From the NCBI GenBank assembly GCA_008632985.1, contig QPGO01000028.1:243598-307597 (forward strand): 64,000 nucleotides of DNA, given 5' to 3'. This document shows, piece by piece, positions 2,901-53,985 of the stretch; positions within the stretch are counted from its first letter, which is position 1, and each line of letters starts with the position of its first letter. Under the pieces are notes generated by a model. It did no database searches, was not told the origin of the DNA, and was given only the letters and a program-made list of their open reading frames with translations. This DNA is from Psammoneis japonica (Eukaryota). Made by a program: the position numbers and the translations under genes.

Positions 2901-2921
2901 AGAGGACAACCGACAAGCATC

Positions 2922-8754: not shown

Positions 8755-8994
8755 GGCAAGCTCTGTGGTGGACCCAAAGTCCAAAAGAAACTGTCGCTAA
8801 GCACCGGCTAAATGCGCTCGTCGAAACCCGGTTTTGCGCTCATTTATGCGCTGAAACTGGCTACGTGTATTCTGCGTAGATACAGTATGGATAGATGACG
8901 TCACAGCCTCCTTCCAACCCTGCGCGCACTGTCTGCGCGCTGCCGCGAGCTTTCACAACCTTGACTGCGATCCCACGCGACATTCTTGAGATCT

Positions 8995-10407
8995 GGGACA
9001 CACGGCATTTTGTCGCATTTGGCGACATTTTCTTAAATGAATTGATGATTTGTCGCGAAAAGACGCGAATTGCGACAAAATGTCCGGGTTGGCGACAAAC
9101 GGGACAGAAACATTGTTTGGTTGGGTCACAAAATGATCAACGTCATTGTTTGCAACCAACCTGAACTTTGGCGATGTCGTTTCAACAAGTGGGGCAATTA
9201 ACAGAATTTGGCGATCGATGTCATTGACGAAAATTCATCCGACAAAATTTGTCGCATGACAAAATTTGTCGTGTCCGACAAATTTTGTCGACAAATTTTG
9301 TCGGCATGCAACACGACAAGACACGACAAGACACGACACGTCACGTCACGACACGACGACTCACGAACGAAACACCCACGCCCGCCACACACACCAACTG
9401 CTGACATCTCCGTTGACACTGCCCGCATGTCTCTTTTGCACGATGATGCAAAGCGACGATCATGCCGCTCTCGGCGGTCTCCATGCTCTCGTCAATGCCG
9501 GGACAACATCGCACGCTTCTACACAGTGCAACAGAATGTGCCGGCATGTGTTGCTGCACTGTGCCTTTTGTCAGTGCAACTGGGCACTTCTGAATGTTGG
9601 GGAGCATTGCGTTGTCGGCATGTCGCAAACGTCCGTCTGTCGGCGTTTGTCGGCGTTTGTTGGCGTTTGTCGGGGTTTGTCGGGGTTTGTCGGGTGCGAC
9701 AAAATTTGTCGCACATCCGACAAAATTTGTCGCATCCGATGGGTTCCAGTCCCAGGTGGGACTTTTTGTGACATTTGCCCCGTAGAATTCTGCGTGCGAG
9801 CTCTGCAGTTCGTACTCTGGTTGATGGACACATTTGTCTTCGACATAAAAAAAACGGCCAAGTTTGCAGTGCATCTGTCCCTGTTCGTGCTCAAAGTTTT
9901 GGACAATGCGCCTGCCCCACGCCATTCTTAAGACACTCGAGAATGGCGTAGAAGAAAAAAATGTTAAAAGTTGTTCAATGGACAGCCTGACAAATGCACT
10001 GTAAAATCATGCAAAATTTCGCCAAAATCACGCAGAAATGCACGTGCGCGACATACGACGCGATTCAAAAAACTGTCGATGTCACAGTTCAGCAGTGCGA
10101 GGTCCCACCTGGACCTGGAACGCGTCATCCGACAAAATTTGTCGCACCCAACAAAATTTGTCACACGCATGACAAAATCGCCAAAACATCAATCAACAAG
10201 TGCAGTCTTCGCCGAAAGTTAAATTCATCACATGGCACTGCAGTTGACACAACGTTTGTGTTTGGGACATGCCATCGCCAATTAAATGATGATTTTGTCT
10301 TGTTTGTCACCAATGGTTGAAATTTGTCTCAAAGGGCGTTTTTCACGACAAATCGTCCAATTCATTTGTGGGAATGTCGCAATTGGCGACAAAATGCCGT
10401 GTGTCCC
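8995..10407. mobile_element. Non-autonomous TIR DNA transposon with ~70-bp imperfect TIRs and many internal CGACAAAATTTGTCG near-palindromes
   Basis: GGGACACACGGCATTTTGTCGC at 8995 vs GCGACAAAATGCCGTGTGTCCC ending at 10407; internal (ACACG)n and (TGTCGGCGTT)n tracts; the MITE at 9738-10126 is nested inside. Confidence 0.75.
9738..10126 (+). mobile_element. ~390-bp MITE, copy A, 4-bp TSD ATCC
   Basis: Ends GATGGGTTCCAGTCCCAGGTGGGAC ... GTCCCACCTGGACCTGGAACGCGTC; ATCC at 9734-9737 and 10127-10130; homologous to 11131-11520. Confidence 0.85.
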
Positions 10408-10688
10408 TGCATGTTTGAATGACTGAACAGCAAGCACTGTCACTTGCTTGAGCAGGTGACAGCTGTGAATGCACTTCCTCCGGCAAGCGACAATTGTCCA
10501 CGAGGAAACACTGTGTCATTCTTTTTGGGCCGTACGATGCAGCACTGCTTCTGCACATTTTTTGGATGTGTGGTCAGAACGTGCACCGTCACAGCGTTCG
10601 CACAAATCGGCACAAAAACACACCACAATGACCAAAATGCCGCTGCTGCCGACACGACAACACGTTGCCGCTACCCTGACAGGCCTCC

Positions 10689-11119
10689 TGCAGCATGCTT
10701 CGCCACTGGACAACACGGCGAGACCGTGCACAAGCCTCTTGTACGTGGCAACGTAGCATTGTTAACACGCACCTGGGAAGCACGACCACAGGAGGGCGTG
10801 GCTCCAGGTCTTGGGCAATTCCAGAAGGATGCTGAGAGAGCATCCGTGTGAAGCACACTGGCCCGTCGTCTGGCCCATGATGGCAGCGTGATTCCACACG
10901 ATGACATCACTCGTGCATGGCGCGTGATGGCTTGATTCGCACGATCCATGATGCGAACGCACGATTGATTTGATGCGATCCAAATGCGAACGAACAGGGA
11001 TTTGGCAAGATTCCCTGTTCACACGATCCCACTTTCTCTGCTCTAAACTGGCTCACAATTTTTACAACGACAAAGTCGCAACACATCTTCTTTTCAGCGC
11101 CTGGTGCATGCATGGGGCA
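10689..11119 (+). repeat. 5' LTR
   Basis: Colinear with 15946-16376. Confidence 0.95.
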
Positions 11120-11130
11120 CAGCAACGTCA

Positions 11131-11520
11131 GACGCGTTCCAGGTCTAGGTGGGACCTCGCACTGCTGAACTGTGACATCGACAGTTTTTTGAATCACGTC
11201 GCATGTCGCGCACGTAGATTTCTACGTGATTTTTTCGATGTTTTGTGTCATTTTACGGTGCACTTGTTGAGCGATCCGTCCAACAACTTTTGACATTTTT
11301 TGTTACAGCGCGATTCTATGATGTCTTAAGAATCGCGTGGGGCAGGCGCATTTGCAAAAACGTTGAGTGGCAACAGGCATGGTTGCACCACAAACTTGGC
11401 CGTTTATTTGATGTTGAAGACAAATGCATCCATTGGTTAAATTCTCACACTGCGGAGCTCGCACATAGAATTCTACGGGCCCAATGTCACACGGAGTCCC
11501 ACCTGGGACTGGAACCCATC
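11131..11520 (-). mobile_element. ~390-bp MITE, copy B, 4-bp TSD GTCA, inserted 11 bp downstream of the 5' LTR
   Basis: Ends GACGCGTTCCAGG ... CTGGAACCCATC; GTCA at 11127-11130 and 11521-11524; reverse complement of 9738-10126. Confidence 0.85.
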
Positions 11521-11574
11521 GTCACTCCCGCACATTGTGCGAGGCAACGAAATCAGCAGAAATGAAACTACGAA

Positions 11575-12651
11575 ATGTTGGCAGGACCGACAAATCTCAA
11601 AACGACCATGAAGAAGCGGGTTGAGCCGCCGATTCCGTTCGCACGGCCGGAGAAGAAAGAGCTGCAGCAGGGCGAGCACCAGACGTTCAAACTACATAAC
11701 AACCCCACTGATCCAGACAGTCCAACGCACGAGATGGGCATTCCGCACCTTTCTGCGGCTGCATGCGAGACACTCCCAATCTTTCTGCGCAATGTGGATC
11801 GCGTGCATGAAGGACAAAACATGACGACCGGGCCAGCGAAATTTGCCCTCATGCGTGACCTGCTGCAGGGCGATGCTCTGACGTCATTTGATGATGCCGC
11901 TGACAAGCAGGCATCCCAAACCAATGCCACGCACGCAGCATGCGTCGCGAAGCTAAAGGAAAGCATCTTCCCACATGGGGCGGTGCTGTTGCAGAAGCGT
12001 CATTTGAGGCGCTTCATGCGCAAGCCCGCAGAGGTTTCTGCTCGTGACTGCATCGCGAGGGCTGTTGAAATTAACGGCCACATCTCTCAGTTTCCACCCG
12101 TGATGGAGGATGGAGAAGCACCGGCACCATCACCCAATGACGAACTGCGCGATGTGTTCGAGTGCGGTGGGCCGAATGCATGGCAGAAGTTCATGACGCT
12201 ACAGAATTTTGACCCGTTGGCGCACACTGTCGCCGAATTTGTGCAGTTCTGCGAGCGCATCGAGCAGGTCGAGCTTGCCGAAGGCAACCTGGACCAACAT
12301 GCCAAGGTTCCACGCAAGCGGGGACGTAGAACGGACAATCCTGAGTCATTGATCATGACCCAACGGAACACCCAGAAGTCGTGTGTGCCACACGGGACTA
12401 ACTGTGGACATCATGCGGAGGATTGCCGTCAGCTCAAGCACCACGTGAAACGTGTCAAGACTGGACATTCCAATGACGGAGGCAGCAAACCCAGCGCAAA
12501 ACCTCGGAATGAGGAAGACATCAATGCTCTCATCGGATCGAAGGTCGAGGAGTTCTTTGCCAACGCTCAGAAAAAGCGCAAGGCACGCGAGGAGGAGCTC
12601 AATCACTTCCGCGACCTCAACTTAAGTGGTTCCGAAGATTCGGACACCTGA
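11575..12651 (+). CDS. gag: Gypsy gag-like ORF (mutated)
   Basis: 358-aa ORF between the LTR and the protease; degenerate zinc-knuckle-like CVPHGTNCGHHAEDC; no Tyr residues left. Confidence 0.75.
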   Translation: MLAGPTNLKTTMKKRVEPPIPFARPEKKELQQGEHQTFKLHNNPTDPDSPTHEMGIPHLSAAACETLPIFLRNVDRVHEGQNMTTGPAKFALMRDLLQGDALTSFDDAADKQASQTNATHAACVAKLKESIFPHGAVLLQKRHLRRFMRKPAEVSARDCIARAVEINGHISQFPPVMEDGEAPAPSPNDELRDVFECGGPNAWQKFMTLQNFDPLAHTVAEFVQFCERIEQVELAEGNLDQHAKVPRKRGRRTDNPESLIMTQRNTQKSCVPHGTNCGHHAEDCRQLKHHVKRVKTGHSNDGGSKPSAKPRNEEDINALIGSKVEEFFANAQKKRKAREEELNHFRDLNLSGSEDSDT

Positions 12652-12783
12652 GAAGGGGGCCGACACGATGCAGGCAGTTTTGATGCACCAGATGAATGCA
12701 CAAATGAACAACTGAATTACCATCGTACACGTGTTGTAGGCCAATCCCGCAAACGGGTTAAAAAGACTCATCTTACTCCAATC

Positions 12784-15700
12784 TTGTTCACAGCTATGAA
12801 TGCTGAACATGGCAAGGGCAAGACTCAAACCATTAAGGCACTGCTAGATAGTGGCGCCAGCAGCACTCTACTCGACAGTCGATACTGTAAACGTCTGCGA
12901 AGCCATTCAACGGCTGAGACAAACTGGACTACGGTAGCATGCTCGTTCAGTACGTCTAACAACTGTACCGTTAAATTTTGGTTAACAGAATTATCCGAAA
13001 CTGCAGAACTTAAACACACCGTCCACGTACACAACGGAAAGTTGGGCAAGTACGATATGATTATTGGACGTGACATTCTGGAGACACAAGGCATTGACAT
13101 TGTCTTCTCTAAACAGATGATAGAGTGGCCATTGGTCAATGGAGAAGTACCAATGAGGCACGTAGATGCTACGGTAGAAACCTCCTTCTATCTTCAAGAT
13201 CCAGAAGACTTATCTTCGGAAACCGACCGGATTTCGCGTATTTTAGACGCTAAGTACGCGCCGGCCTGCCTCGAGGACATAACGCGAGGGACAATAGGAC
13301 TTTCTACAGTTCAACAAAACGACCTTTTGGCACTATTGAAACGCCATGAGTCCTTATTTGATGGGACATTAGGAGAATGGAAGGGAGAACCCTACCATAT
13401 CCAACTCAAGGAGGGTGTAGAACCATACCACGCTCGTCCGTATAAAGTGCCTCGTGCGTACGAAGCTACGCTACGTAAAGAAGTAGAACGCCTAGTGCGT
13501 ATCGGTGTTCTCAAACGCGTTAACCGATCCCAATGGGCAGCTCCATCATTTATCATACCGAAGAAAGATTTAACGGTACGCTTTATTAATGATTTCAGAG
13601 AGCTGAATAAACGGATCAAGCGATTGCCTTATACGATTCCTCATATCCAAGATGTGCCACTTAAGCTCGAAGGCTTTATGTGGGCTACATCGCTGGATTT
13701 AAACATGGGCCATTATCACATCCGATTGGATGCTGACAGCAAGAAGCTCTGCACGCTCATCTTCCCGTGGGGCAAGTGTGAGATGCAGGTGTTGCCCATG
13801 GGATTATGTATTCGCCAGACATTTTCCAAGAACGCATGTCAGGCTCATTTCAAGATCTGTCGTTCGTTCGAACGCACTTAGATGACCTTCTCGTCGTGAC
13901 GAAAGGCACCCATGAAGATCACCTCAACAAACTTGAAGAAGCTTCATTGAGGGTCCAGAAAGCAGGACCAAAAGTCAACGCAACTAAATCTCACTTCTGT
14001 CAAACCCAATTAGAATGCTTGGGTCATCTGGTCAACAGAGACGGAGTGCGACCAACACCCAATGAAGTCGACGCCATCAAGCGAATCGCGACCCCAGCCA
14101 ATGAATGCGACCTGCGCTCATTTGTTGGTGTGGTGAACTGCTGCCATGACACGTGGATTGGACGTTCTGAAGTCTTGGCTCCGCTGACACGACTCGCAAG
14201 CGAGACTGTCAAGTGGGAGTGGACGTCCGTTGAAGACGAGGCGTTCGAAACCGTTGAACGGGTGATGTCGGATGATGTTTTGTCATCACATCCTGATTTT
14301 AACAAACCTTTTGAGACACATGCCGATGCCTCTAAATGTCAATTGGGAGCAGTTGCATCCCAAGATGACAAACCCATTGCCTTTTACAGCAGAAAGCTTG
14401 ACAGTGGGCAATTAAATTGTGCAACAACGGAGAGAGAATTGCTCGCCATTGTGGAGACATTGAAAGAATTTCGAACGATTCTCCTTGGTCATCATGTGGT
14501 TGCACATGCTGATCATAAAAATCTTGCGCACAAAGCATTCAATGCCGAGTGCGTCATGCGCTGGTGGTCAACATGCGAAGAATGTGGTCCCGAATTACGC
14601 TGTGTTGAGGGCACCCATGACCTCATCGCTGACGCTCTCAGTTGCCTTCGACCAGCACCCAGCTTGCCTTCCGAGGCCAATCCGGATGTAAAAGACACTC
14701 CATCGAGTCGTCTTTTGCATGAAGCTTTTAATGCAGACACGCAAGATGAGGCATCTCTGCCTGTTGGCTTCAAGCGCATACAAAAAGCACAACAAAAGGA
14801 CAAGCGCCTGCTCTCACGAGCTGAGGACTCGTCCGACTGCTCCATTTGTGCGTGTCGTGGGGGAGGGTCATCACGACAGTTAATCTGTCATAAGGACAAA
14901 ATCGCAGTGCCACAGTCATTGCAGGTTCTGCTAACTGAATGGCGCCACGAGACACTGTGTCATCCAGGTGAGACACGTGCAGAAATGTCCACTGCCCAGC
15001 ACTTCTGCTGGCCTGGCATGAGGTCTACGGTGCATTCTACGTGCATTGAGTGCGATCGATGCCAGAAGACAAAACGCCGAACGCAGCGTTGTGGGAAGCT
15101 GCCAGAAAAGGTCGCAGAGATAATTCCATGGGAGACTCTGTGCACAGATGTGACAGGGCCACATAAAATTCAAAGACGCGGAAAGGACACTTTGCAATTG
15201 TGGGCAGTCACAATGATTGACCCAGCAACTGGGTGGTTCGAGATTGAAGAAGTGTCCATGAAACGCGCAGACGTCGCAGCAAACGTCGTGGAACAAACGT
15301 GGCTGTGCAGATGTCCGTGGCCAACCCAGGTGGTTTATGACCGTGGGACAGAATTTATGGCAGAATTTAGCCAGATGATTAAATGACTGTGGGATTTTGA
15401 AGAAACCCATGAGCAAACGGAATCCACAGGCGAATGCCACAGTGGAACGTGCACACCAGACACTTGGTGACATGGTGCGTTCCTTTTCAGTGCAGGGTGT
15501 GGAACTGGACGAAGATGACCCATGGAGTGGCATCCTCTCCGCAGCAGCCTTCGCCATTGGAGCTGCGGCACATGCGACCACGCATGCAAGTCCCACGCAA
15601 TTGGTCTTCGGACGCGATGCGGTTTTGTCTGTTGCCCATCGTGCCAAGTGGAAGCACATAGAAACCAGAAAGCAGAAGCTTGTCCACTTAAACAACAAGC

Positions 15701-15900
15701 GTGAAAATCAGAAACGCAAGGAGCATCAATGCACCGCAGGGCAATTGGTGCTTGTCAAACAGGAACAATCCTCTAAATGCGGTTCTGACAGCTGTGCAGG
15801 ACCCGCCAGAGTTGTCCGTGTGTGTGACAATGGCACGTTGCGCACCCAGAATGGAGCGCTGACAGATGCGCACAATCTGCGGCAGATTGCACCCTGTCAC
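12784..15900 (+). pseudogene. pol: Gypsy pol (aspartic protease, RT, RNase H, integrase) with frameshifts near 13810 and 15385
   Basis: LLDSGAS protease motif; WAAPSFIIPKK, DFRELNKRI, HLDDLL (RT); ADAS, YSRKL, ERELLAIVE (RNase H); HETLCHPG, C..CDRCQ, YDRGTEF, NPQANATVER (integrase). Confidence 0.92.
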
Positions 15901-15945
15901 CAGCAAGACATCCTGTCACTTGATGGCCCTGATCATGGGGGAGTG

Positions 15946-16376
15946 TGCAGCATGCCTCGCTGCTGGACAACACGGCGAGACCGTGCACAAGCCTCTTGTG
16001 CATGGCAATGCAGCATTGTCAACACGTGCCTGGGAAGCACGACCACAGGAGGGCGTGGCTCCAGGTCTCAGGCAATTCCAGAAGGATGCCAAGAGAGCAT
16101 CCGTGTGAAGCACACTAGCCCGTCGTCTGGCCCACGATGGTGGCGTGATTCCACATGATGACATCACTCGTGCATGGCGCATGATGGCTTGATTCGCACG
16201 ATCCACAACGCGAACGCACGATCGATTTGATGCGATCCAAATGCGAATGAATGGGGATTTGGCAAGATTCCCCATTCGCACGATCCCACTTTCTCTACTC
16301 TAAACTAGCTCATAATTTTTACAACGACAAAGTCGCAACACATCTTCTTTTCAGCGCCTGGTGCATGCATGGGGCA
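15946..16376 (+). repeat. 3' LTR
   Basis: Colinear with 10689-11119; preceded by the PPT. Confidence 0.95.
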
Positions 16377-17110
16377 CTCCAACTCATCAATCAACCCACA
16401 AGCGACCATGCATGGTGTTGAAACGATGTCATTTGGCCTGTTCTTGCGTCTGCATCATTGATGGAAGATCGTCTTTTTCGTTTGTACAGGGTTTTACGTG
16501 CTTTGGCTCGACGGCAATGGTGGAGCGGCTCTGCAAACAACAAAATCGGATTGAAGGTCCTGCATCATGGCACTTTCGATCTCAGGGGATGATGGATGAC
16601 CAGCACATGGTGCACTGTTGTTGAAATGAGTGGTTTTGGGCAGTCAGCGGCCAAATTCTTGCCGTCATTGTCGCGAAGCACGGCGTTCCACCACGACGTG
16701 AAGATCCATGTCGAAATTGAATCAGGTTATGAGCGCAAACATGATTGTGCAGAGGCAGCACTGCGCAATGCGGCCCAAAAAGAATGACACGGTGTTTCCC
16801 CGTGGACAATTGTCACTTGCCAGAGGAAGCATGCAGCAGTGAGTTTTGTGATGTGACTGTCACTTCTTGTCTCTAGAGAGGGCCAATTGCTTCTGTTGCA
16901 GTTGCAAGCTCCTCATCATGAGTGTGTTGCAACGTTCAGGTGTGATGCCACGTAGAATCCTGGCATGTTTCTACGCAGTGGCGCATTTTTGCGCATTTAG
17001 GGCTAGCGCAAAATGAGACCCAAAAACTCAAAAATGTGCACTGCGCATTTAGCCGGTCCTTGTGCTCCTCTCCACGTTTTGAGATCAGATCCATTTCGCT
17101 CGATTGACCT

Positions 17111-17305
17111 GGGGAAGTCCCCAGCCAGCGCTGTGCTGGCTGAAGAATCTTGTGTGGAATTTGCACTGAAAGAGTCTGTCAATCTGTGCATCAGGGGGTT
17201 TTGGTGAACGCTGGACAGACTCGACGTCTTTCGTGTGCATGAAAATTGCAGTGGCAAAACCACTGAACGCACTGACGAGCAGACTTTTTTCAGCCAGCAG
17301 CTGGC
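17111..17305. mobile_element. Degenerate second copy of the 4771-4976 MITE
   Basis: Colinear with 4771-4976; TA sites of copy 1 are replaced, mostly by TG/CA. Confidence 0.85.
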
Positions 17306-17699
17306 ACTGCGTGAAAGAGGGCCCCATGAAGCTGCAGGCCTGGTGCATTGTCTGCTCTTCGCTCGTCTACGAGACACACATGCCATGATTTGTGTGGAAG
17401 ACCTGCTCATCACCCAATTGCAAAAACAACGCGCGCTTTCTTTCTGATCACTGTCGTGCACTCCATCACGACGACGATGTGGTTCCCTCTCAACGGCATG
17501 TGGTTGGGAACGCCGTCAACACACACGTCGCAATCAACGACAGAAAAGAAAAGTGCAGCAAGTCAGCAGTGCAGTCAGCCAGCATTGTCCGAAACTGAAC
17601 TGCAAAGAGCGCGCCCACCGCAAGCAAAAACAAAGAACCCTGCAACCACAGGTAAAATGCACATTTTACACTCGACAGACGAGGATTGTGGGTTGTCCA

Positions 17700-18330
17700 T
17701 TGTCATCCACTTTGATGGCGGTTCTCGAGAAAATCCCAGTGTGTGCTTTCAAGAGCACTCAATGAGCATTCCTTTGATCTGAGCACACAGTGAATTGCTG
17801 CAATTGTTGTGCATCAGGCTTGGCTGAGCCGGGAGCAGAGGTGGCGGTGAAAGAAAGAGGCCAAGAAAATGAAAGAGGGAATGACAAAGAAAGAAAGACA
17901 CACATTCAAAAGTGCGAGCGATGAACAATGTTGCTGCATGTGAAGGATTGCTGTGTGGTTTGGATCATGCCCAGTCCATGTTGCGAGAGTGCTTCCAAAG
18001 AATGCTTCGCAAACCAATCGACCCCACCACCAGAGGGCAATCGGTGCATTTGCAAGTGTGTGGCGACTCAGATTTGTTGATTAAGAAGCTCAAGGGGACA
18101 CACAATGGCAAGAATGAAAACTCACTCCATTGCATGAACAGGCAATGTCATCATTTAGTCGGAGATTTGCAGAAAACTGCAAATGCCGTCGTTCAACACG
18201 TTTGCGGTGAAGACAATAAATCGCTGATGGCAAGTTTTTTCTGGGTTTCATGATGCATTCTTGGATCACACAGAATCTGAATGTTGCATGTCGCACTTGT
18301 TGCAGGGTTGGCCAATGAAGCCATGGACAG
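17700..18330 (+). pseudogene. Degenerate intron-containing RNase HI-like gene
   Basis: Fragments IHFDGGSRENP, NNVAACEGLLCGL, LQVCGDSDLLI, QHVCGEDNK and LANEAMD match RNase HI motifs (FDGxSRGNPG, NNxAEY, GDS, HVxRExN, ADxLAN). Confidence 0.75.
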
Positions 18331-21300: not shown

Positions 21301-22551
21301 GTTCTGGTGCACCGAGATGACAACTGACATGATGACAAATGCAGTGAAAATGTCAGATGACAATGATGGAGTTGTTTTGGGAGCTGCTTGAGCGATTGGT
21401 GATGGTTGATTTTTGACACGCACAACTTGGTGCTGAAAACACTCACATTTTTCTGCCGCGGTGGGGCTGATGATTTTCACTTTTTGGGGAGTGCATTTGG
21501 AGTTTTCTCATTTGATTGCATTGACGAAGCACTGCATGAGCACGCGACAAGAGATTTTGACAAAAAGTTGGATTTGCAGTCATCATGGAGGATTGCCACG
21601 GGGTTTTTAGCACGGTGAAGCACAGAGGGACGATTTTTTCATGGATTTGCAAAAGATCCTGCATCCCATTGAATTTGCGTGCATGACATTGGTGGATCAA
21701 TGTATTTTTTACATGCAAGAAGCACAATGATGTTGACACACCCGACATGATGGACTTCCCATGTTGTTGTTGCGACAAGCAAAATGTTGTTGCATTCGGC
21801 TCGTAGAGTCCAGTGCCATTTCTGTGCACATGGCATCCACTGGAACCAGATTTTTGAAAGTGCGCAGCCCCATGACAACCAGTTTGCAGTGAAGTGGGAT
21901 CAGCTCATCAACATTGCCTGGAAGCATGCAAAAAGAACTTTTGTGCCACAATTTTGAAGGTGGCAACCAAACCAAAGCAAGGCAGAGAAGAGACAGCACC
22001 AGCTCAAAATTGGCAGACACAGCACAACAGCAGCAGTTTGTTGTTGAATCAACATGAACTGCCGCAGCTCCATCATGCTGATTCGAACAACACTTCTGCC
22101 TGCAAGCAAGTCGCACTGATTGTTTTGACAATTGACCCATGCAGTGACAAGCGGCACTGCCATCAACGACGTGGTGTTCCTCTGCATGACTCTGGTTGCT
22201 TGGGTTCTTCTTCTTCCTCCCTCCCCATTGTGCCACATGGCACCATTCATTCCTTCATTCCCACCCACAGCATTGCCCAAATTGGCATTTGTTCCGCCAT
22301 TCATGGCAGCAGCAACACCAATCTCTCCATTGTTTGCACTCTCAATGCTGCCATTTTCAACATGATTGAGGAGGACAGTCCCCCATCATGGCACTCCACA
22401 TTGTGTGACACTGTTGCTCACAGCATTGCTGCCTTGAGGAGGCAATGGGTCACACCATGGGCAAATTTTCCATTGTCCCGCGGCCAATCACCATGCCAAC
22501 ACCCATTCACCCTGTGCCTTGGGATGTGAAATGGCTGGAATTCCTGTGAAT

Positions 22552-23440
22552 GATGGGGACATGTTGTGTCACAGGGTCAGGAACAGTTTTTGGTCTGGCC
22601 AGGTGGAAGTGCCTGGTCTCATGCCTGTGATGACATGCCCAGATGCACAGACACCCAGATGGCCAAGACACTTGGGGGGTGCTGGTGTGACTCAAGCCCA
22701 AGCCCACTTTGGCATTCACACCAGAATGCACCATTGTCGCTGACAGATTTCCATTCCCTGACCAAAGAATGGTGTGATCTGTCAGCATTTATGATGCCAA
22801 TTTATCGCTGTTGCCATTTGCCATTTCCTCATTCATCGTGAAGGTTGGCTGCCAAAATTCAGTTCTTTTTCAATTTCTGTCACTCCCCATCAGAGTGACA
22901 CCTCATCCATCTCTTTCAAGTGGCTGGCTTCTGGCTTTGCTGTTGTGTGGACCCCAGAATCAACTCCAGTCACCACTTGTGCACTTGTGTGTGACTTGCT
23001 CTTGTTCTGCTCTCTGCACTTGAGCATTGATGATGTTGGCAAGTGGAGCTCCAGCCCAGACCTGGTGAAACACCTTGCTGCTGTCTACATGGCAGACAAG
23101 TCTCTTGGCAGAGACCATTGCAGGTGCCCCCATGAACAATGGGGACATGTGTTCCAGGGTCAGGAACAGTTTTTGGTCTGGCCAGGTGGAAGTGCCTGGT
23201 CTTGTGCCTGTGATGGCAAGCCCAGATGTGCAGATGCCCAGATGGCTGGCTCGGTTGGTGTGACTTAAGCCCAAGCCCACTTTGGCATTCACATCTGAGT
23301 GCGCCATTGTTGCCAACAGATTTCCATTCCCTGACCAAGGAATGGAGAGAGCTGCCAGCATTCATGTGCTGCCAATTTGTTGCTGTCACTGTTTGCTGTT
23401 CTCATTCATCATGAAGGTTGACTGCCAAAATTCAATTCTT
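22552..23440. repeat. Diverged direct duplication of ~310 bp (approx. 22552-22868 and 23139-23440)
   Basis: Shared CAGGGTCAGGAACAGTTTTTGGTCTGGCCAGGTGGAAGTGCCTGGTCT ... AGCCCAAGCCCACTTTGGCATTCACA ... CTGCCAAAATTCA. Confidence 0.85.
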
Positions 23441-24230
23441 CCTTGATTTCTGTCAAAGTGCACGTTGTGTTGGAGGGACTGTGGGAGTGCTGCTTCCCAC
23501 GTGAAAATCTGCATCTCTTGTTTTGACTCACAAGTGCCATCACAACGAGTCACGAGACACCCTGCACCACATGTGGTGACAAAATTTTTGACACCGACAC
23601 CACACTGAGGGCCGGCTAAATGTGCTCATCTGAAGCAGGTTTTGCACCCGTTCGTCGCGTGGTGAATCCCACAGAAATTCTTGAACAGGATTTTCCTGGG
23701 ACTCAAAACACCGACCGAGTGTGACTTGCAGGCAATGGATGACGATGATGCCCCTTCACAAGACCAACCCAGGAAAACATGCATCATTGAAAGATCATCT
23801 AAAGCAGATGTGGATTGATGAAGTCAAAGTGCAACTTCGACCATTGTGTCCGAAGATGTCATTGTCTAAAAACCGACGCGCAGCATTTTCCAATTTAGTG
23901 CAAACATGCATTTATCTTACAACATGAGGTTCAAAATTGCACTTTGACCCCCCAAACCATGTTCCCCTGCAAGTGCTTGTGACGGTTTGACTCTTCTTTC
24001 ATTGTGATGCTCGGCTTTTTGAGGAAGATGTGGACGATTGAAAATGTGGCTCGGCCAAGCTGAATCCCAGTAGAATTCGTACTGAAGTCTACGGCACACC
24101 AGAAATTGCGCGCGAACATTTGGCTAGTACCTTAAACCGCCGTCTTCCATTGAATTGATGATACAGTATTTGTTTGTTCTACGCTCTAATTGCAATACGG
24201 TAGACCTAGAATGCTTGGGTCAAGATCCAC

Positions 24231-25799
24231 CTATTCAGCAAGCTTGATCGTGCCAACATCATTCCCACGCATGTAGCACTGGCAGGACCTAAAACCATCA
24301 TTGAAGACTAGAGTGCAAAGATTGTTGTCCCTTTCGCTGGGCACCACACTACCTGCCCGACAGTCCACAACAAGCCATGCATCTGCCACTACTTCCTGGT
24401 ATTTGCCAGGAATACGATCGAGATGTTCCTTCCTTCCTCTTGCATCACGAAGCAGCTCCAAAGCCCACTTCCTTCCATTCTTGATGTAAAAATCCAACTC
24501 TCCAGTGACAACTTTTCCATCAATCATCGCTTCAGTGCCAAGCTCTGGAATGATTCGATACGATACAGGTAGTAAAGATGCAATTGCTTCATGGAAAAGC
24601 TGTTGGAACACCGCCTCTTTTGGACTTTGCAACACACCATCCTTTATTGGGCTTGCTACTCGGAGTCGCCCAGCCGAAATCCTTTCAGTGGCCCGAACAA
24701 TTAGATCATCTAGCGATTGAGGAACATCTGCATCGAATGCGGCTCGGGGGAATACCTTGTTGTAATAGAATCTCTCTGCAAAAGGACTCGTAAATCGTGC
24801 CGATTCTGTCAAGATCCCGGCCTTGATCAGCTTAGAAACGATATCACCAGGTTGGCGGTTTTCGTCTCCCGTGTTGTCTCCCATGTCAGCTTGATAGGCT
24901 TGGACAAGTGCATCCAAGATGACTTTGCGGGCTTCTTCATCTATCCTCCTCACGGGGTAACAACGATCCAGCTCATGAAATGGGGTATGCTCGATCAATT
25001 GCGACAAGGCATCATTTTCTGACAATGTATCACCCTTGCTTCGCCTGTCCACTGTTTCAGAGAGATAAACAATGCGATTCATCCCAATGGTAAATGCGGC
25101 AGCGGTGCCATTGGTAACATAATAGAGTCGCTCAAAATACTCGTTCCAATCTGGGTGCATGCAGCGACGTCGGTAAAGATTTCTAGCTTCTTCTTTTTCC
25201 AACCGCAAGTCGTTCAGACCAAGACGTTTCTCGTTTTTGAAACAGTATGGTGATTCACTTGCATTTGAAAGGTAGCATGTTGTAAAAACAACAACAATGA
25301 CTTTTGTCTCCCCGAATTCCTCCGAAACCAGGAGTTTACCTTTGGTAACATGTTCCCAGAATTCCAGATAGTTTGCACCGTAAAGTCTCTGTGCATCGTC
25401 GAAGAGAAGCCAGACTTCCGAACAGCCATGTGATTTTCCGCTCTAAGTAAACTCGTCAAGGGATACCCCAGTTTTCCGCGCAACGTAGTCAAACAAATCG
25501 GTGATCTTTCCAACTGACGCTGGCCTCAGATAATAGCCCCTTATCGGTTTGCTCGGTTTGCTATCATTTTCCTTTGCCAGTTTTCGTTGAATCAACTGTG
25601 ACAGAGCTGTTTTACCGGTTCCAGGGGGCGAGCCGACGACTAAGAAACGACTTTCCCTGGCATAATTAATTGCGTCGGAAACTAAACGTTCTCGATGAAT
25701 GTACGTTTCGGGTTCGTCTTTGTTGATACCATTCAAATCCCACGTTCGCCCTCTTCGTTCTTTCTTCCTTTGAGGGGAAGTGAAAGCTTGAACTGACAT
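24231..25799 (-). pseudogene. P-loop NTPase fused to a C-terminal PD-(D/E)xK nuclease-like domain (Crinkler/RHS-effector-like architecture); one in-frame TAG at 25443-25445
   Basis: Walker A GSPPGTGKT, Walker B WLLFDDAQ, C-terminal GELDFYI..WALELL; hand translation is in one frame from 25799 to 24231 except for the single TAG. Confidence 0.7.
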
Positions 25800-25865
25800 T
25801 GCTGACTCTGTCGAACCGGCCGATGATTTTTGGTTTTGTTTTGAACTCTCTCTACAGTGCCTTAA

Positions 25866-26258
25866 GGGGGGTCATCCCCGCGTTTATCCTAAAATTACCG
25901 TTGCATTTGAATAAGGTTTTTTATAGTGTTTATTTTTGAATACAAGAATTATTCATAGTCACACCCGATCGCGCACGAAAACGAGAACCATCAACACCGC
26001 GATCGAAGCACGACGATGATGACAATCATCGATATTTCTCAAAAACGTAGTTTGCCGTCTACCAACTTTTCATGTATATACAATCTTTGATACATAACAA
26101 ACATAAAATAAATGAGAGTTGGTAGACGGACCACCTCCGTTACAGACTTATGGCTTGTTGTTTTCACCACGGTGAAGCACGGTGAAATTCAAGAAAAATC
26201 ATGCAAAACACGAGCTATTCGGCCGAATTCGAGCTAAAAAAGTAGCAACCGACCACCC
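25866..26258. mobile_element. 393-bp non-autonomous element flanked by TTAA, with short TIRs and an internal 18-bp inverted repeat
   Basis: TTAA|GGGGGGTC ... GACCACCC|TTAA; CCGTCTACCAACTTTTCAT / ATGAGAGTTGGTAGACGG at approx. 26056-26129; AT-rich. Confidence 0.55.
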
Positions 26259-26479
26259 TTAAGCTCTCTAGCTAGAGAGACGGTAGCTCTAGCTTTACCG
26301 GTAGAGAGTAGACAGCCAGAGCGCTTCGAAAAAATTCTGTCCGTCTGTCCAACTGGGGCATTTTTTACGCACGATTTTGATGCCTGTCGATCGCTGCGCT
26401 GTCGCTGCCCGTCGCTGCCCGTCGTTGCCCGTTGCCCGTTGGGAGCAAAACGCACCCTCTAGTCTAATGGAATGATGGT

Positions 26480-27350
26480 GCTGTGCTCAGTGCCTTTGAG
26501 GGTGCAAATCCCCTTGTTTTGGTGCAAATCCCCTTGGTTTTTGGACGTGCATTTGCAAAAAGCAACAAAATGAAAAACACCCCAATCACACGTGTGACGC
26601 AATTGTGGAGAAAACATCCCAGTGCTTTCTGCGCTCACTGTGCAAACAACACGACAATGGCAGAAATGCCGTTCATTGAACACAATGGAGGTGGGGCATC
26701 AAGTGTCTTTTCTCATCACATCACTTGGTCATGTTTGAATGTGTGATTGAAACACAAGTCATTTTTGACACTTTTTGCACACATGTGTCTTAAAAACAAG
26801 GGGGTTTGAAGCCTCAAAAATCCAGCACCTTTTAAAAAACAGCCCAAAAAGTCAGCACCTTTGCTCATTTTTAGCACCTTTAAAAACGATTTAAAAATCC
26901 AGCACCTTTTAAAAAAAAAGAGCACCTTTGAACACCCTTGTTTTTCGCGTTTGTGTTGCAGAAAGCGACTGGAACAATCCATGTTTTTGCTGAATTGTGA
27001 ATCATTTGTGCAAAAAACAGCCATGAGTGTTTGTGCTCACCGTGCAAACCACACCATGACAATGGCACAAATGCCACTTGTTGAACACAATGGAGGTGCT
27101 CCAGCACCCAAGTCTCTTCATGAGTTTGTTGCAAACAATGCGTGGGACAATCTCATGAAGCGATTTTGATGATGGATCACCTCCATTGCATTCAACAAAT
27201 GGCATTTGTGCCATTGTCGTGGCATTGTTCCATTGGGTGCTGAGCACAGGCAATGCCTCAAAATTTGTTGGAATGCAAAAAGTTTTCAAGGTGCTGGAAA
27301 TTTGAAGGTGCTGATGTTTTCTTTTGAAGTGCTGATTTTTAAATGTGCCA
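26480..27350. repeat. Degenerate repeat complex with direct and inverted ~50-bp units and CAGCACCTT motifs, probably transposon termini
   Basis: GACAATGGCA(G/C)AAATGCC..TTGAACACAATGGAGGTG at ~26650 and ~27058, inverted at ~27178-27225; repeated AAATCCAGCACCTTT. Confidence 0.55.
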
Positions 27351-27362
27351 AGTGCAAATTCA

Positions 27363-28099
27363 TCATAGATTCCCCAAGAGCCAGCATGGTCCTGTTTGCA
27401 TTCATGGCACTTGCTGCAATCTTTGCCATTTGCAGCATTCTATGCAAGGGAAAAATGTCATCTCTGCAACAAATTGCTTGATGAAACAGCATTGACATCT
27501 CAGACTCTTCAAGCAGGCCCTCCACATTCAAGCCAGCCAGCATCAACAAGGTGCTTCGACTGCCTGTGTGAAGATGCAAGAAGAGAATGCTCACATGCTT
27601 GGTTTTGAGCAGATCAAAATGGCATCCAAGATGGAATGCTCAAAGGTGCTCATCAATTTCATTCTGTTTCGAACCATGGAAGGAAGTGAGCACATTTCCT
27701 CCAGCTTTGGGTGGTTGATTTTGAAACTTTGCCGGGTGCACGCCATTGCGCACAACTGTGTTGAGACTCTTGCTCCTCATCATGAGGCACTCAAACCAAG
27801 ACAATGGAGTGCACACATTTTCAGTGGCAATCACAGGCTGAGCAACTCCAGCCTTGAGAAACTTTGGCAAAATTTTGCATGCGGATGGATCGTCATCAGG
27901 AAACTCTGCCCTCATTTTGTTCTTTTCCTTCATGTCATGAGCAAACATCACATCAAAATGCTCACTTGCATGTCAAAGCTGGGAGCTGTTGTGCGTGAGC
28001 TCTTCATCTTCCACAATGACAGCAACATCAGTTGTTGTGTCTTGGCAATTTGTGGTTGTCATGGCAAGCTCTGTGGTGTCTCCAAAGTCCAAAAGAAAC
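27363..28099 (-). pseudogene. Hypermutated duplicate of the BTB gene at 7984-8790
   Basis: Colinear over ~700 bp with 8023-8791; differences dominated by TA>TG/CA and CG>TG/CA; one internal deletion. Confidence 0.92.
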
Positions 28100-29089
28100 A
28101 CACCGAAACAAAATGTCGTGCTCCTCTCCACGTTTTGTGATTGGACCCATTGCACATGACACATGACCCATTTCTGATTTTTGCACAAAAAAGTGCACAG
28201 CACGCACAGGAAAAAATGTGTGGCACAGCCAGGCCATGGTGGGTTGGTTTCTGTTCCCTCCATTGTCCACTGTTGCTGGTTTTTGTTTTTGAGACAAGGA
28301 AAGAGAAGAAGATGTCAGCCAGTGCAGATGACAGCAAGGAAAAGAAAGCAAACACAATGTTCGCCACATCTCATCAAGCACCAATCATCAACTCAATGGC
28401 AAAAGACAAGGCCAGTGAAACCTGCACAAAATCTGCAAACAGAAAAAGAGTGGGGCTCTTTTTGCTGAACAACTCCAATGTGGAAACAGACTTCTTGCCA
28501 AAAGGTGTGTGATGCTCTGGCATGTGAGTTGTCAGCAGCTTGTTGCAGTTTTGACAAAATGGAGCCTGCCAGTTGGAGGGCAACTCTGTGAAGTTGCAGG
28601 CTGGGTGGGAAAAGACAAAACCTGGGTTGCAGTGCACAATGCATGCAGCGCTGCAACTCTGCTCTCTGGCAGCTTCACAATGCATGAGCATGCCCATCAA
28701 AAAAAGTGCTCCCCCACGCACCCCTCCACATCCAGAAGCCCACCATTCACAGGCTTTGGCCTTTGTTTTGCTTTTGCTCAGAGTGATGTGGGGTGCTTGC
28801 AGTGGAGAGCATCTCTCTTGCATTGTGTGGCATGGAAATGCAGCTGTGGGTTCTTTCTGAATGATTTGCAAGGCTGTCAAGATGCAGAAGCTTCTGCTTG
28901 GAATGCGTGTTGCCATGCACAACGATGAGTCAATGAGCAATCATGATGTTGCAAACTCCACTGTTGAAGCATGCAAACATTCTCATGTCTCCCGACATGA
29001 ATTGAAAGCAAAAGTTCTGGCATGTGATGTGCAGATTGAAGATGCTCAACATTGTGTGGCACAAGGGACCCACTTCCACAAACAATTGG

Positions 29090-30082
29090 GCAATTGAGGT
29101 GCTCAAACCAAGACAACAAAATGCGTGCAATTTCAGTTGCAATCACCAGCTGAGCAACCCCAGCCTCAAGAAACTTCAACACATCACAAATTGCAGTTCA
29201 TTGTCATTTCAATAAAAAGAGAAGATGCCAGGCAATTGAGGGGCAGCTGTGACATTGCAGGCTGAACATAAAAAGATGAAACCTGGATTGCAACGCAATG
29301 CAGCAATGTGCCTCTGCCATCTGCTGGCAGCTGCATTTGAAGCAAAGACACTTGTGTCATTTCGAAATCACAAGTCACTCCTTTGATCCAAATCCCAGAG
29401 GAGATTCATCTGTGAGGTCTGATGCAACAAGCTCTGCCAAGCCAGGCACTTGCACAGCATCATCATCTGTGCAGTGAAGACAGATTCAATTGTTGTTGCA
29501 GCATGACAACAGAAAGAGTCTGGACATTTCAGACTCCTCACTCAGATGTTCTTCATTCAAGCTGGACAGGATTGGAAGGGCGGCTTGACTTCCAACATGA
29601 AGAATCAAAAATCTGATGCTTTCAAGCTTGGTTCTTGGCAAGTCAAAGTGGTGAGACAGGCAAAATGCATTGACACATTCTTCTGTTTCCATGGGAGATG
29701 ACTGAGGGAACAATTGCAAACAGCTTCCTTCCAGTTGCTGTGCAGCTGTGCAAACGTTTTTGGGTGTGCAGCATTGCATGTGGCTTTGAGGCTCTCACTC
29801 CTCATCATGAGCCATTCAAACCCTGAAAGCAGGATCTGAACATTGTCAGCAGCAATGATGGGCTGGGCGACTCCAATTTCAAGAAACTTGGAAACCATTT
29901 CCCGGGTCATTGTCCTCTGGAAATTCCACCCTCATTTTGCTCTTTTCCTTCACATCATGGGGAAACATTGCATCAAAGCACTCACTGGCATGTTGAAGCT
30001 GAGAGGCAGAATGCACAAACTCTTCCTTCCCCATGATGACAGCGACATCCTTTTCCATGTCTTGATGATTTGAGAATGACAT
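29090..30082 (-). pseudogene. Further degenerate BTB paralog (approx. 29400-30082) plus a short BTB fragment (approx. 29090-29185)
   Basis: KDVAVIMGKEEFVHSASQLQHASECFDAMF; KFLEIGVAQPII; KFLEAGVAQLVIATE. Confidence 0.8.
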
Positions 30083-32730
30083 GATTGCTTTGGCTCAGAA
30101 AAACAGAAGCACAAACTGTGTTGTGATGCAAAGTTTCAGCCAGTCTTCTCTCTTCTCTGTTGTGCAATGAACCGCTGTTGTGGGTTGCTGCAATTGAGGG
30201 TTTTCATTGGCTGGGGGAAACTGCCCAGTGCGCGTGTGAGGAGCTCACGTGCAACATCACCCAGTGGGGGGGGGGGACAGATGTGGAGCAAGGGTGGAAC
30301 TTGCTGGGTCATGTGGGCAGGAAAAAGGATGGGTTTTGGGTTGGGGTTGGCCAGTTGGGACTGCAGTTTGGCGGAGCATCAGTGCAGAGCAGAGCACGGA
30401 GTTTCATGGGTTTGGGGGTTTTGATGGATGCAACAACTGGTGCGTGCATGAGGAGAGCCAATGCGTGGGTGCCCTTCACCAAATGCACATCGGGTGGGTG
30501 GGAAGGAAGTGAAGCAATGCCAGCAGCACTCTCTTGCCCTGATGAACTGCTGTTCTTGTCACAGCCTCTTGTCATTGCAATGCCAAGAAGAGCTCCACCA
30601 GAGCTGAAAAAGTTTCAATTTTCCCAGCCTGCAACCCTCACCATGCTTGCTTGCATCTCCCCCTCTGGCTGGAAAGCCTGCTGCTGCAAATCTCCATCAC
30701 TCCAGTTGGATGTCAAGGTGAGCATTTCACAAATTCTTTGACAACATGCTGTCCACCAAGGTGTGCATTCAGATGTTTTGGTTTCAAGTGACCTTGTGGG
30801 CCTCATCCCTCCTGGTGCTCCCGGCAATGTGAAAAAATCGGCACCACTGAGCATTCTCTTCTTGAGGGGGAAGGGCACAGCATGGGCTCTGAGCAACAAT
30901 GGCACCAAAGTTGCACCCATCTTGTTGCCCATTTCTTTGTTTCAATCATGCCAATGACTCTCCTGGATTCGCCGGGGCCATCAAATTGCGGGTGGCTTTC
31001 CACAGACTGTGAGCAAGTGGGTCTTTGTCACCTGGCACACCTGGCTGCTGTCAAGGTCCTCCAAAGCTTTGGCACCACTGCCACCCTCTGGAGAGTCACC
31101 AGCCGATGATGCCACTCATTCATCACACAGGACATTGACACCCTTTGGCTAAAATGATCAAAGCCATCTGTTGCATTTGGCAGCTGGTTTTTAGGAACAA
31201 TGACTCCATTGTGTTGCAAACCCATGTTCAACAACAATCTTCTCTCTCACATGGAAGATGACAAGGCCACCAGCTGTGAGTGCATGCTCTTCTGTTGGGA
31301 CAAGGCCTTCCTGCCCATCAAAATTTTTGCACCATGTTGACAAGAGCATGCAGTGCTGCCTCAAGGCTTGTGCTCAATTTGCGCTGCGTGACAAGTTGGA
31401 AAACTCTTTTTTGCACACCTCGTGCCAGCAGCCACCATTGTGGGCACATTTGGAGCCTCTCCAGAAGAAAAACCTCAACAACCATGAGGGGCCACCAGCT
31501 GTGGAGCACCTTGGGGCCCCGACTTACTGCCACTGACAAAGAAAGCTGAGCAAATGCAGGGCCCTGTGTGGTGCAAAAATGCAGCATGATGCTGCATTGT
31601 TTAAAATGAAAGGCTTGCTGCACTTGCAATTCTTCACCGCTTTTCCACACCAATTTCCAAGCACTTCAATGACAAACAGAAGTCATCTTGCCAGATGAAC
31701 AATGGCCTCACAAAGCTCCCAGTTGTGGTGAGTTCTTCTTGCAAATTGTGCTGGCAAGATCCTTGCAATGATGTGGCAGAGAAATGGCAGTGATCACCCT
31801 GATTTCAATGTTCTGATCAACTTTTCATTTCAAATGCTTGAAAGACACCAGAGTTCCACTGTGGTGCACATGAATGCTCTCTAGTTTTGAGAAGGAGTTG
31901 GGTCATTTTTGCAGGCAGCTGATTGCACCTTTGGTGAGACCACAGTGTGCCTGCTGCACTTCAACAATCAACACATGGGTTCCAATGGGCAGCTGGACTT
32001 GACACTGAATGACCACATCTCTGCCACTTGCCATCACAGTGTCCTTGTGCTGAGCTCTTTGAGAAATGCTGCACACAACTGCAAAAGCAATGTCAAGCTT
32101 TAACAACAAGAATGACTTGCCATTTATTGCAGAGCTGTTTGGTGTGGAGGAGAAACAAGGTTTGGCTGATGCTGCTGTGGAATGGGTGTGTGCCATCTAA
32201 ACACATGAAGCATGCAGTGGGCAACCCATGAAAATTGAGGTTGCAACACCCAATGACAACATGTCACCACTCCACAACTCTTGTGACATTCAGAAAAGAT
32301 CTGTGATTTTGGCATGCTTGCTGCAATGGCCAAGCTTCATCAAGCATGTTCTCCCATTTCATCACAGTGGTTCCATGGATCAAGTTAGCTCTGACAACCT
32401 TTTGTGCATTTTGAAACGTGAACGAACCATGTTTCTTTGAAAGTTTCTGTTCCCCTTCCTCCATGGCACTGGGTGCTTGCACAAGCTGCTTCTTCAAAAC
32501 GTGACTTGTTGCTCATGTTTTGAGGTTGGCTTGAAGATAGCTTGTCCCACGTGCAAAAGCCAGTCATTAACGGCTTTTTTCCCTCTGTGGTTTAGTTTTT
32601 GTCGAGTTTCAGTTGTTCGTAATTCATTTTAAGACGCATGTAAAAACAGAAGCGGCGCGTCCTGCATGTGCTGTGCATGATCTGGATCTGGAAAGTGCTA
32701 ATGATAACCGAAATCTTACTACATTGGGTG

Positions 32731-52710: not shown

Positions 52711-52929
52711 AGATGGGTGGACTCTGCTCTCTCTCGCTCTGCTGCAGCAGCTGGAGCTGCAGCACCAGCTGGCAGCAGAGCAGCTGGAGGCCCTGCTCTC
52801 TATGTGCAGAGAGCAGCAGCAGAGCCAGCTCTGGAGCCAGAGCAGAGACCGTGCAGGACTCAAGAAGCAGATGATTGCAGGTGTCTGTGAGCACGCCATC
52901 TCCTTCTTGTGCACAAAAGAAAGTGCCAT

Positions 52930-53952: not shown

Positions 53953-53985
<33 letters not shown>

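Follow-up and report, generated by a model that had tools for sequence, protein, structure and literature searches.

Repeat-induced point mutation (RIP) of ascomycete fungi is a localized, context-dependent and defence-like transition hypermutation of mobile elements and duplicated genes; it changes C to T mainly at CpA and hence creates TpA, strikes both members of a duplicated pair, and gives rise to stop codons. Targeted A:T-to-G:C hypermutation of resident DNA is the mirror image of this process, and it has been described only since a 2026 preprint on mutation-accumulation lines of the chlorarachniophyte Bigelowiella natans (Mettrop et al., bioRxiv 10.64898/2026.01.13.699255). As described there, two integrated viral regions took up 231 of the 302 mutations; of these, 230 were A>G or T>C, every one of those on TpA, at about 1,000-fold above background and in only some of the lines. 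The same source describes 124 clusters, poor in TpA and rich in CpA+TpG, in which reverse transcriptase and transposase domains are enriched, presents the main target as single-copy, and proposes an ADAT2-like adenine deaminase while staying agnostic on the chemistry. We analyzed a 64,000-nt window of a diatom chromosome (Psammoneis japonica, assembly GCA_008632985.1, contig QPGO01000028.1, positions 243,598 to 307,597) in which a Ty3/gypsy retrotransposon, dead gene copies and degraded sequence lie in blocks nearly free of the dinucleotide TA. From the direction and context of the changes, their action in place, their strand symmetry, their mass balance and their presence in sequencing reads, we consider it likely that a DNA-level, locally targeted hypermutation turns the A:T pairs of TpA into G:C in discrete blocks of this chromosome.

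Sliding 1-kb windows and a two-state segmentation across all 15,887 pyrimidine-purine (YpR) steps agree that multikilobase domains almost without TA lie beside genes of normal TA content, as a preliminary description of this DNA had noted. In the sliding windows, depleted stretches have observed/expected ratios (o/e) of 0.00 to 0.15 for TA and 1.5 to 2.1 for TG and CA, and adjoining gene regions have a TA o/e of about 0.5 and a CG o/e of about 1. By segmentation, eight depleted domains (Table 1) total 36,173 bp and hold 174 TA (4.8 per kb), whereas the density of the normal DNA (1,089 TA in 27,787 bp, or 39.2 per kb, with a TA o/e of about 0.55 in the genes) predicts about 1,418. TA makes up 1.9% of YpR steps in depleted DNA versus 15.9% in normal DNA (Fisher p = 7e-242), and the density of YpR steps is unchanged (250.3 versus 245.9 per kb). 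The gain in TG+CA of 68.7 per kb (from 151.3 to 220.0) is close to the loss in TA+CG of 64.3 per kb (from 94.6 to 30.3), which is the balance expected if transitions turned TA and CG into TG or CA; the TG and CA excesses are equal domain-wide. Domain edges are sharp within tens of bases (TA occurs at 8877, 8881, 8886 and 8892 and next only at 9034) and fall 100 to 500 bp from the ends of adjoining open frames. Two marks of a TpA-restricted hypermutation are thus present: TpA depletion paired with CpA+TpG enrichment at a constant YpR total, and confinement to eight discrete, sharp-edged domains. The coordinates first proposed for the domains agree with the segmentation, except that a single span drawn from 9000 to 32560 takes in two stretches whose composition is normal (12718-14011 and 23867-26465).

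The local BTB family has three intact copies in normal DNA (7984-8784, 32731-33519 and 33627-34343), and a single depleted domain contains at least three mutated fragments of it (27364-28099, 29095-29183 and 29785-30083). The first of the intact genes (aligned stretch 8023-8791) and the first of the fragments, a pseudogene, are 81.6% identical and were almost identical before mutation. At the 20 aligned TA of the intact copy the pseudogene has 10 TG, 8 CA, 1 TA and 1 GA, and at its 36 CG it has 16 TG, 14 CA and 5 still CG. Counted per A on both strands, A>G affects 18 of 39 A in TpA (46%) but only 2 to 9% of A elsewhere (11/119 in CpA, 5/114 in ApA, 2/114 in GpA); C>T affects 30 of 72 C in CpG and 3 to 6% in other contexts. 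Decay of methylated CpG would account for the CG loss (30 of 36) and leaves the TA loss unexplained. The preliminary description had claimed that TA was converted to TG or CA, that A>G was specific to TpA, and that both strands were hit. All three points hold: 18 of the 20 TA changed that way, the A>G excess is confined to TpA, and paired copies show the partner of TA both as TG and as CA. The outcomes it had named beforehand as fatal, an ancestral TG/CA state and equal A>G rates in all contexts, are not what the counts from this pair show.

Its further claim that repeats are the target is not supported in that form. One BTB copy is saturated, and its partner and two further paralogues in normal DNA are untouched; since only the copy inside a depleted domain is mutated, targeting looks positional rather than repeat-triggered, and not homology-induced on both copies. 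RIP itself was considered and rejected, as the direction is opposite and one BTB copy is intact. Neither C>T changes that raise TpA nor mutation of both copies is seen here; TpA is destroyed, CpA and TpG are created, as the preliminary description had stated, and no stop codon arises from a sense codon. Many diatoms nevertheless carry DNMT4 enzymes, which are related to the RIP factor RID (PMC9998398).

Protein-level damage in the Ty3/gypsy element, which spans about 10689-16383, also gives the direction. Its pol frame (13782-15383) was compared by column with 60 of 120 near relatives, a tyrosine column being one with tyrosine in at least 70% of them. Tyrosine is kept in 1 of 18 such columns and replaced by histidine in 5, cysteine in 9 and arginine in 1; the two remaining columns (valine and alanine) lie in the first six residues, upstream of the true frame. 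Other conserved residues are kept (glycine 19/19, aspartate 13/13, histidine 7/7, tryptophan 10/11). A second alignment has 291 conserved columns, of which 74 differ in this frame, and conserved tyrosine survives in only 1 of 15. Reversal of a single TA>TG/CA change undoes 34 of these 74 changes, a single CG>TG/CA reversal undoes 5, another single transition undoes 5, and 30 lie beyond any single transition, so that TA>TG/CA makes up 34 of the 44 single-transition changes. The A>G/T>C substitution at TpA is therefore found in pol as well as in the BTB pair.

Alignment to solved Ty3 structures shows YLDD>HLDD, LGY>LGH, NYY>NCC and NY>NC. Checked against the relatives and a consensus, the individual replacements read earlier from the sequence recur at the codon level: HLDD for the reverse transcriptase YLDD (CAC at 13875, a position with tyrosine in 100% of relatives), GKCE for GKYE (TGT at 13777), GHYH for GYYH (CAT at 13711), and, in RNase H, NCAT for NYTT and AHADH for VYTDH. 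Tyrosine makes up 0.6% of the pol frame, 0.3% of gag and 0.0% of the frame that encodes the integrase C terminus, compared with medians of 4.1% in the 120 near relatives and 3.5% in 150 representatives; in a 1-kb block of the element with normal TA (12718-13714) the figure is 2.9%. As a normal control, the overlapping frame 12784-13881 offers only 60 conserved columns, which cluster at the domain edge and are partly out of frame. The reverse transcriptase is split into 12784-13881 and 13782-15383 by a frameshift in the window copy; an extra base at 13808-13809 is present in other copies in a public sequencing run.

The long terminal repeats (LTRs) of one element are identical at insertion, so their differences record what happened afterwards. 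The pair differs at 35 positions, 33 of them transitions; 32 lie at steps that pair TA or CG with TG or CA, and 3 lie outside. There are 7 sites with TA versus TG/CA, 9 with CG versus TG/CA, and 8 (16 positions) where one LTR has TG and its partner has CA. Given identity at insertion, each site of the last kind was a TA or CG that mutated independently in the two copies; with 24 shared and 9 single CpG sites, less than one double CpG loss is expected, and nearly all 8 were therefore TA. On these counts each LTR would have begun with about 25 TA, of which roughly 80% were lost in each independently, against about 16% of CpG. The TA rate in the LTRs would be about ninefold the CpG rate per site and two to three orders of magnitude over the non-YpR background. 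Divergence of the LTRs at TA steps means that the element was still normal at insertion and acquired its mutations in situ.

That history leaves next to no probability for intrinsic composition or selection, whether as TA-poor foreign DNA, avoidance of UpA or GC-biased gene conversion. TA is low even in the genes (o/e about 0.55), and one depleted frame has mostly bacterial-type relatives, both of which such an origin could accommodate. The mass balance, the polarity and the in-place LTR divergence, however, speak of conversion rather than origin, and o/e values of 0.00 to 0.05 are far under any UpA avoidance in the window's genes. GC-biased gene conversion, for its part, would not be TpA-specific and would run against the concurrent change of CG to TG and CA. 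Where the gypsy element and the BTB copy are concerned, these readings are contradicted outright.

The two outcomes, TG and CA, are random in order along the sequence (10 runs versus 9.9 expected in the BTB pair, 16 versus 17.5 in pol), and on the sense strand of pol 20 A>G and 14 T>C changes occur without strand-coordinated runs. This is not how the known deaminases that hypermutate repeats and viruses behave: ADAR hyper-editing and APOBEC3 act on RNA or on a reverse-transcription intermediate and leave strand-coordinated clusters, and APOBEC changes are C>T/G>A rather than A>G, whereas here resident DNA is hit on both strands without runs. Adenosine-to-inosine editing of element transcripts by an ADAR- or ADAT-like enzyme, fixed by reverse transcription, nonetheless has some attractions. 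The clearest target is a retrotransposon, other copies of it in the public run vary at the same steps, and ADARs prefer a U 5' of the edited A, as the discussion of the B. natans preprint points out (10.64898/2026.01.13.699255). We regard it as very improbable. The LTRs diverged in place at TA, including 8 TG-versus-CA sites, a DNA-level duplicate of the BTB gene carries 10 TG and 8 CA, pol shows both polarities uncoordinated, and about 25 kb of the depleted DNA has no retroelement domain by Pfam. Action before insertion, restriction to the transcript strand and strand clusters, which this route predicts, are not what the LTRs, the BTB pair and pol show. ADARs, moreover, are not known outside animals.

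Bases flanking TA modulate its loss strongly. Expressed for each tetranucleotide as TA surviving in depleted DNA over TA in normal DNA, TTAA is almost immune (45/45, ratio 1.00), followed by CTAA (30/74, 0.41), ATAA (26/143, 0.18), CTAG (7/44, 0.16), GTAA (22/144, 0.15), CTAC (27/181, 0.15), ATAG (8/109, 0.07), GTAC (4/93, 0.04) and ATAC (5/163, 0.03), with ATAT erased (0/78, 0.00); RTAY (purine, TA, pyrimidine) is the most sensitive class. An additive half-site model, with weights for the base 5' of T on each strand of about 2.0 for A, 1.7 for G, 1.05 for C and 0.13 for T, fits most classes, CTAC less well (0.15 observed, 0.08 predicted). Product balances by tetranucleotide are confounded by CpG decay and element composition. 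The main text of the B. natans preprint makes no mention of flanking, tri- or tetranucleotide context (10.64898/2026.01.13.699255).

The flank rule bears on two other chemistries. Under the first, the T of TpA would be modified or oxidized, for example to 5-hydroxymethyluracil or a base-J-like form, and mispair with G to give T>C. Read from the opposite strand, T>C in R-T-A becomes A>G in T-A-Y; since the same base pair is changed, the flank effect is equally a trinucleotide preference around T, and sequence alone cannot separate a thymine-side from an adenine-side reaction. We hold the thymine-side route to be unlikely. No sign of such a base in diatoms was met, although no search was aimed at it, and the B. 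natans authors, in what the preprint says of mechanism, favor adenine deamination. Under the second, which the preliminary description had put first among its candidates, error-prone repair in heterochromatin by a Y-family polymerase resembling pol eta would place G opposite T at WA (W being A or T). Pol eta has a WA hotspot with an A>G outcome in somatic hypermutation, and it would account for A:T>G:C changes that are symmetric between strands. WA includes ApA, though, and in the one gene pair available ApA changed at 5 of 114 sites against 18 of 39 for TpA; polymerase errors would hardly saturate close to 80 to 100% of sites with so few collateral changes (3 of 35 substitutions between the LTRs), and immunity of TTAA is not a known feature of the signature. 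We therefore rate this route as quite improbable.

Loss of CpG runs alongside loss of TA in these blocks and is separable from it. Across 8896-12713 the TA o/e is 0.15 at a CG o/e of about 1, and none of the eight segmented domains has lost CpG without losing TA. TA loss is thus decoupled from CpG loss and ahead of it, and the earlier argument that CpG decay cannot explain the missing TA stands. Deamination of 5-methylcytosine would explain the CG>TG/CA half of the pattern and cannot touch TpA, which goes first and, in the LTRs, at about nine times the rate per site. In diatoms, DNMT5a methylates the CpG sites of transposable elements (PMC9998398). The CpG loss here is probably passive 5-methylcytosine deamination. 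Under the genetic code, TA>TG/CA creates no stop from any sense codon, and it clears every frame of TAA and TAG. Many open frames in depleted DNA follow from this: 133 of the 197 frames of at least 100 amino acids lie mainly within it, and the ruined pol is still open.

The TA-free DNA is present in reads. One public DNA run contains 96% of sampled words of 22001-32000, and its k-mer contigs over six unique TA-free stretches of 502 to 1,433 bases have depths of 57 to 72, compared with 54 to 57 for genic contigs, and reproduce the window letters with 0 to 2 differences each (Table 1). No half-and-half strand variants or broken contigs, the expected trace of a modified base whose two strands are called differently, occur in the six stretches. 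A sequencing or assembly artifact of chemically modified DNA, with TA miscalled as TG or CA, is for these reasons extremely improbable, even though the domains are probably modified DNA and some long-read basecallers miscall modified motifs. The damage is moreover coherent at the protein level, and the LTRs and paralogues differ in a copy-specific way. In total the window and the run differ at 4 places in the 5,675 bases of unique depleted DNA covered by the listed contigs (18191, 19426, 19523 and 26723), all at steps between CG or TA and TG or CA, and at none in 2,569 bases of genic contigs; these differences may be allelic or recent mutations.

The gypsy region has a summed depth of 12,000 to 88,000 in the run, which implies hundreds of copies. 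Among the 40 listed of 243 variant places, 12 have TA elsewhere and TG or CA in the window copy, 4 are the reverse and 13 are the CpG equivalents, so that 29 in all lie at steps between TA or CG and TG or CA.

Several observations weigh against a process of the kind we favor, or limit its reach. The polarized counts come from a single BTB pair, a single pair of LTRs and the pol frame of one element. The public run may be the assembly's own source; agreement with it excludes a consensus or strand artifact and does not amount to a second platform. With respect to the sensitizing flank, the base pair hit is split 25 to 18 (p = 0.36, 66 polarized events). An untouched 1-kb block stands inside the element, which a uniform domain-wide process would not predict. 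In it tyrosine is kept in 3 of 4 conserved columns, the fourth, at the right edge (13711), being histidine; on one side of the block only 9 TA occur in 1,239 bp, and on the other TA is sparse. Because both LTRs were mutated in place, the block is likeliest the product of later gene conversion from an undamaged copy, or of chimerism introduced when a high-copy family was assembled or polished; it may also have been protected locally. Finally, none of the 79 best related metagenomic gypsy loci is TA-depleted (TA o/e 0.55 to 1.06, median 0.75), which means that hosts of this element lineage do not generally show the process, although the scan by alignment kept the best 80 of 406 loci and that selection may favor undamaged copies; a scan of metagenome contigs with the single protein found no relative. 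The same TA values serve as a baseline for related elements.

Four of these metagenomic loci (L034, L001, L022 and L021) have a CpG o/e of 0.12 to 0.24 at a normal TA o/e of 0.62 to 0.75 (0.12 and 0.62 in L034), which shows CpG decay in other hosts without TA loss. Among 270 public pol relatives, in turn, five are nearly free of tyrosine and carry cysteine or histidine at most conserved tyrosine columns (19/24 in P0088, 10/12 in P0127, 12/14 in P0228, 8/15 in P0244 and 14/17 in P0254), so other public assemblies carry this footprint too.

The identifiable content of the depleted DNA consists of the gypsy element, the BTB pseudogene pieces and a frame of ELWxxDGT repeats (Table 1). That frame has partly lost tyrosine to histidine and cysteine (Y 0.9%, H 5.2% and C 3.3%, against 2.2, 1.9 and 0.3% in relatives); its best relatives (E = 4e-123, 30% identity) are, where an organism is named, bacteria or metagenome bins. 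Its start resembles a signal peptide and its tail thrombospondin type 3 sequence, and its repeat motif LYF appears as LCV, LHF or LCF in several repeats. Pfam searches of the 133 depleted frames gave a strong match only for gypsy pol and a weak one for the ELWxxDGT frame; the others had no match at E <=0.01 save two marginal ones (E 0.006 to 0.008). The same searches found no viral hallmark, and none of the identifiable content belongs to nucleocytoplasmic large DNA viruses (NCLDV) or virophages; since 132 of the 133 frames lack any strong domain, some of the rest may still be of viral origin. Rfam and tRNA scans across the window found nothing.

Fragments of elements flank the full gypsy copy in inverted arrangement (9737-10126 versus 11131-11521, inverted, 81%), and 4772-4962 matches 17111-17305 at 87%; such fragments suggest nested or rearranged insertions in the depleted block. 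The stretch 25343-26676 has normal TA, a summed contig depth of 1,200 to 5,600 and a short CCCGTCGCTG-like tandem at about 26390-26440, which indicates that some repeated short segments escape TA depletion. Among named sequences, the best matches of an importin-alpha frame (47938-49749) all come from diatoms (Cylindrotheca, Nitzschia, Pseudo-nitzschia, Fistulifera and Thalassiosira among others) at 79 to 84% identity, with plants next at 52 to 67%. The genes of the window are long single exons; those of B. natans are intron-rich. The DNA is accordingly that of a diatom, not of B. natans.

Table 1. Features of the 64,000-nt window and contigs of the public run compared with it (domains and islands by segmentation)
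Feature	Position	Strand	Remarks
TA-depleted domain	1064..4760		TA o/e 0.08, CG o/e 0.50
ELWxxDGT-repeat open frame, 671 amino acids	2799..4811	+	in depleted domain 1064-4760
Intact BTB-domain gene	7984..8784	-	normal TA; unmutated partner of pseudogene 27364-28099
TA-depleted domain with normal CpG	8896..11213		TA o/e 0.15, CG o/e 1.15; repeat fragments and 5' LTR
5' LTR of Ty3/gypsy element	10689..11126	+	92% identical to 15946-16383
TA-depleted gag-side part of gypsy element	11476..12713		TA o/e 0.15, CG o/e 0.97; gag-frame tyrosine 0.3%
Unmutated 1-kb block, protease and N-terminal reverse transcriptase	12718..13714	+	72 TA; edges sharp on both sides
Normal-composition island	12718..14011		
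Hypermutated reverse transcriptase-RNase H-integrase frame	13782..15383	+	
TA-depleted domain	14016..23863		TA o/e 0.11, CG o/e 0.54; rest of gypsy element and about 7 kb of unrecognizable DNA of single-copy depth
3' LTR of Ty3/gypsy element	15946..16383	+	
Run contig	17838-18777		1 difference
Run contig	19297-20729		2 differences
Run contig	21546-22601		0 differences
Run contig	23302-23944		0 differences
Normal-composition island	23867..26465		open frame 24231-25208 (-)
Run contig	26234-27334		1 difference
TA- and CpG-depleted domain	26468..32532		TA o/e 0.05, CG o/e 0.19
Hypermutated BTB pseudogene copy	27364..28099	-	inside depleted domain 26468-32532
Run contig	27499-28000		0 differences
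TA-depleted domain	46231..47580		TA o/e 0.06, CG o/e 0.27
TA-depleted domain	50215..55218		TA o/e 0.04, CG o/e 0.22
TA-depleted domain	57355..63999		TA o/e 0.04, CG o/e 0.17; continues past window end

Taken as locally targeted hypermutation of TpA, the process would convert A:T to G:C by giving TpG when one strand is hit and CpA when the other is. It would act after the DNA is in place, on each strand independently and site by site. The blocks concerned contain dead copies of genes, a retrotransposon and degraded sequence, and the action would stop within tens of bases of genes. Ordinary decay of methylated CpG would follow in the same blocks, about ninefold slower per site. Proteins would be ruined by missense changes (all tyrosines and many isoleucines, leucines, valines and threonines) in frames that stay open. 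By analogy with the proposal made for B. natans, the chemistry may be enzymatic deamination of adenine to hypoxanthine. The targeting cue may be a silent chromatin state.

The likeness to B. natans, so far as the preprint describes that system, extends to exclusive A>G/T>C changes at TpA that yield TpG or CpA in discrete regions, to long-term loss of TpA with gain of CpA+TpG, and to clusters that carry mobile-element domains. The host differs, a diatom here and a rhizarian there, and so do the identifiable targets, an LTR retrotransposon and dead host-type genes rather than viruses. TA depletion is deeper (o/e 0.04 to 0.15, against 0.45 in the NCLDV region of B. natans), CpG decay is superimposed, and a tetranucleotide effect spares TTAA and erases ATAT. 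De novo mutations were watched in B. natans, whereas the diatom process is known from its footprint in sequence. The preliminary description had taken the phenomenon to be undescribed; the 2026 preprint precedes it, but for diatoms no report of TpA hypermutation turned up in the literature searched, which included two diatom transposon papers and excluded subscription journals.

Diatoms and chlorarachniophytes both lie within SAR (stramenopiles, alveolates and Rhizaria). Tentatively, and with more doubt than confidence, we suggest that they share an old chromatin-guided editor that acts on duplex RTAY and turns A:T into G:C in silenced or invading DNA, a missense-only defence that would be widespread in algae of the SAR supergroup, a grouping named in PMC9998398. 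Its footprint would have been overlooked because annotation masks repeats. Were this so, tyrosine codons and TATA-like signals would be erased without stops, upstream of CpG decay and faster, by a natural base editor of adenine (or thymine) competent on double-stranded DNA.

The same signature at saturation in a diatom would indicate that the process is not limited to one species, and would extend its target range from integrated viruses to retrotransposons and dead genes. The enzyme would then be findable by comparing the gene content of algae with and without the footprint; model diatoms can also be knocked out with CRISPR (PMC9998398). The flank rule, with ATAT erased and TTAA spared, provides the basis for a concrete biochemical assay, and a natural A:T-to-G:C editor working in chromatin would be relevant to the base-editing field. 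For diatom genomes the practical consequences are that LTR-based dating and repeat detection are distorted, and that long open frames in such blocks may be false.

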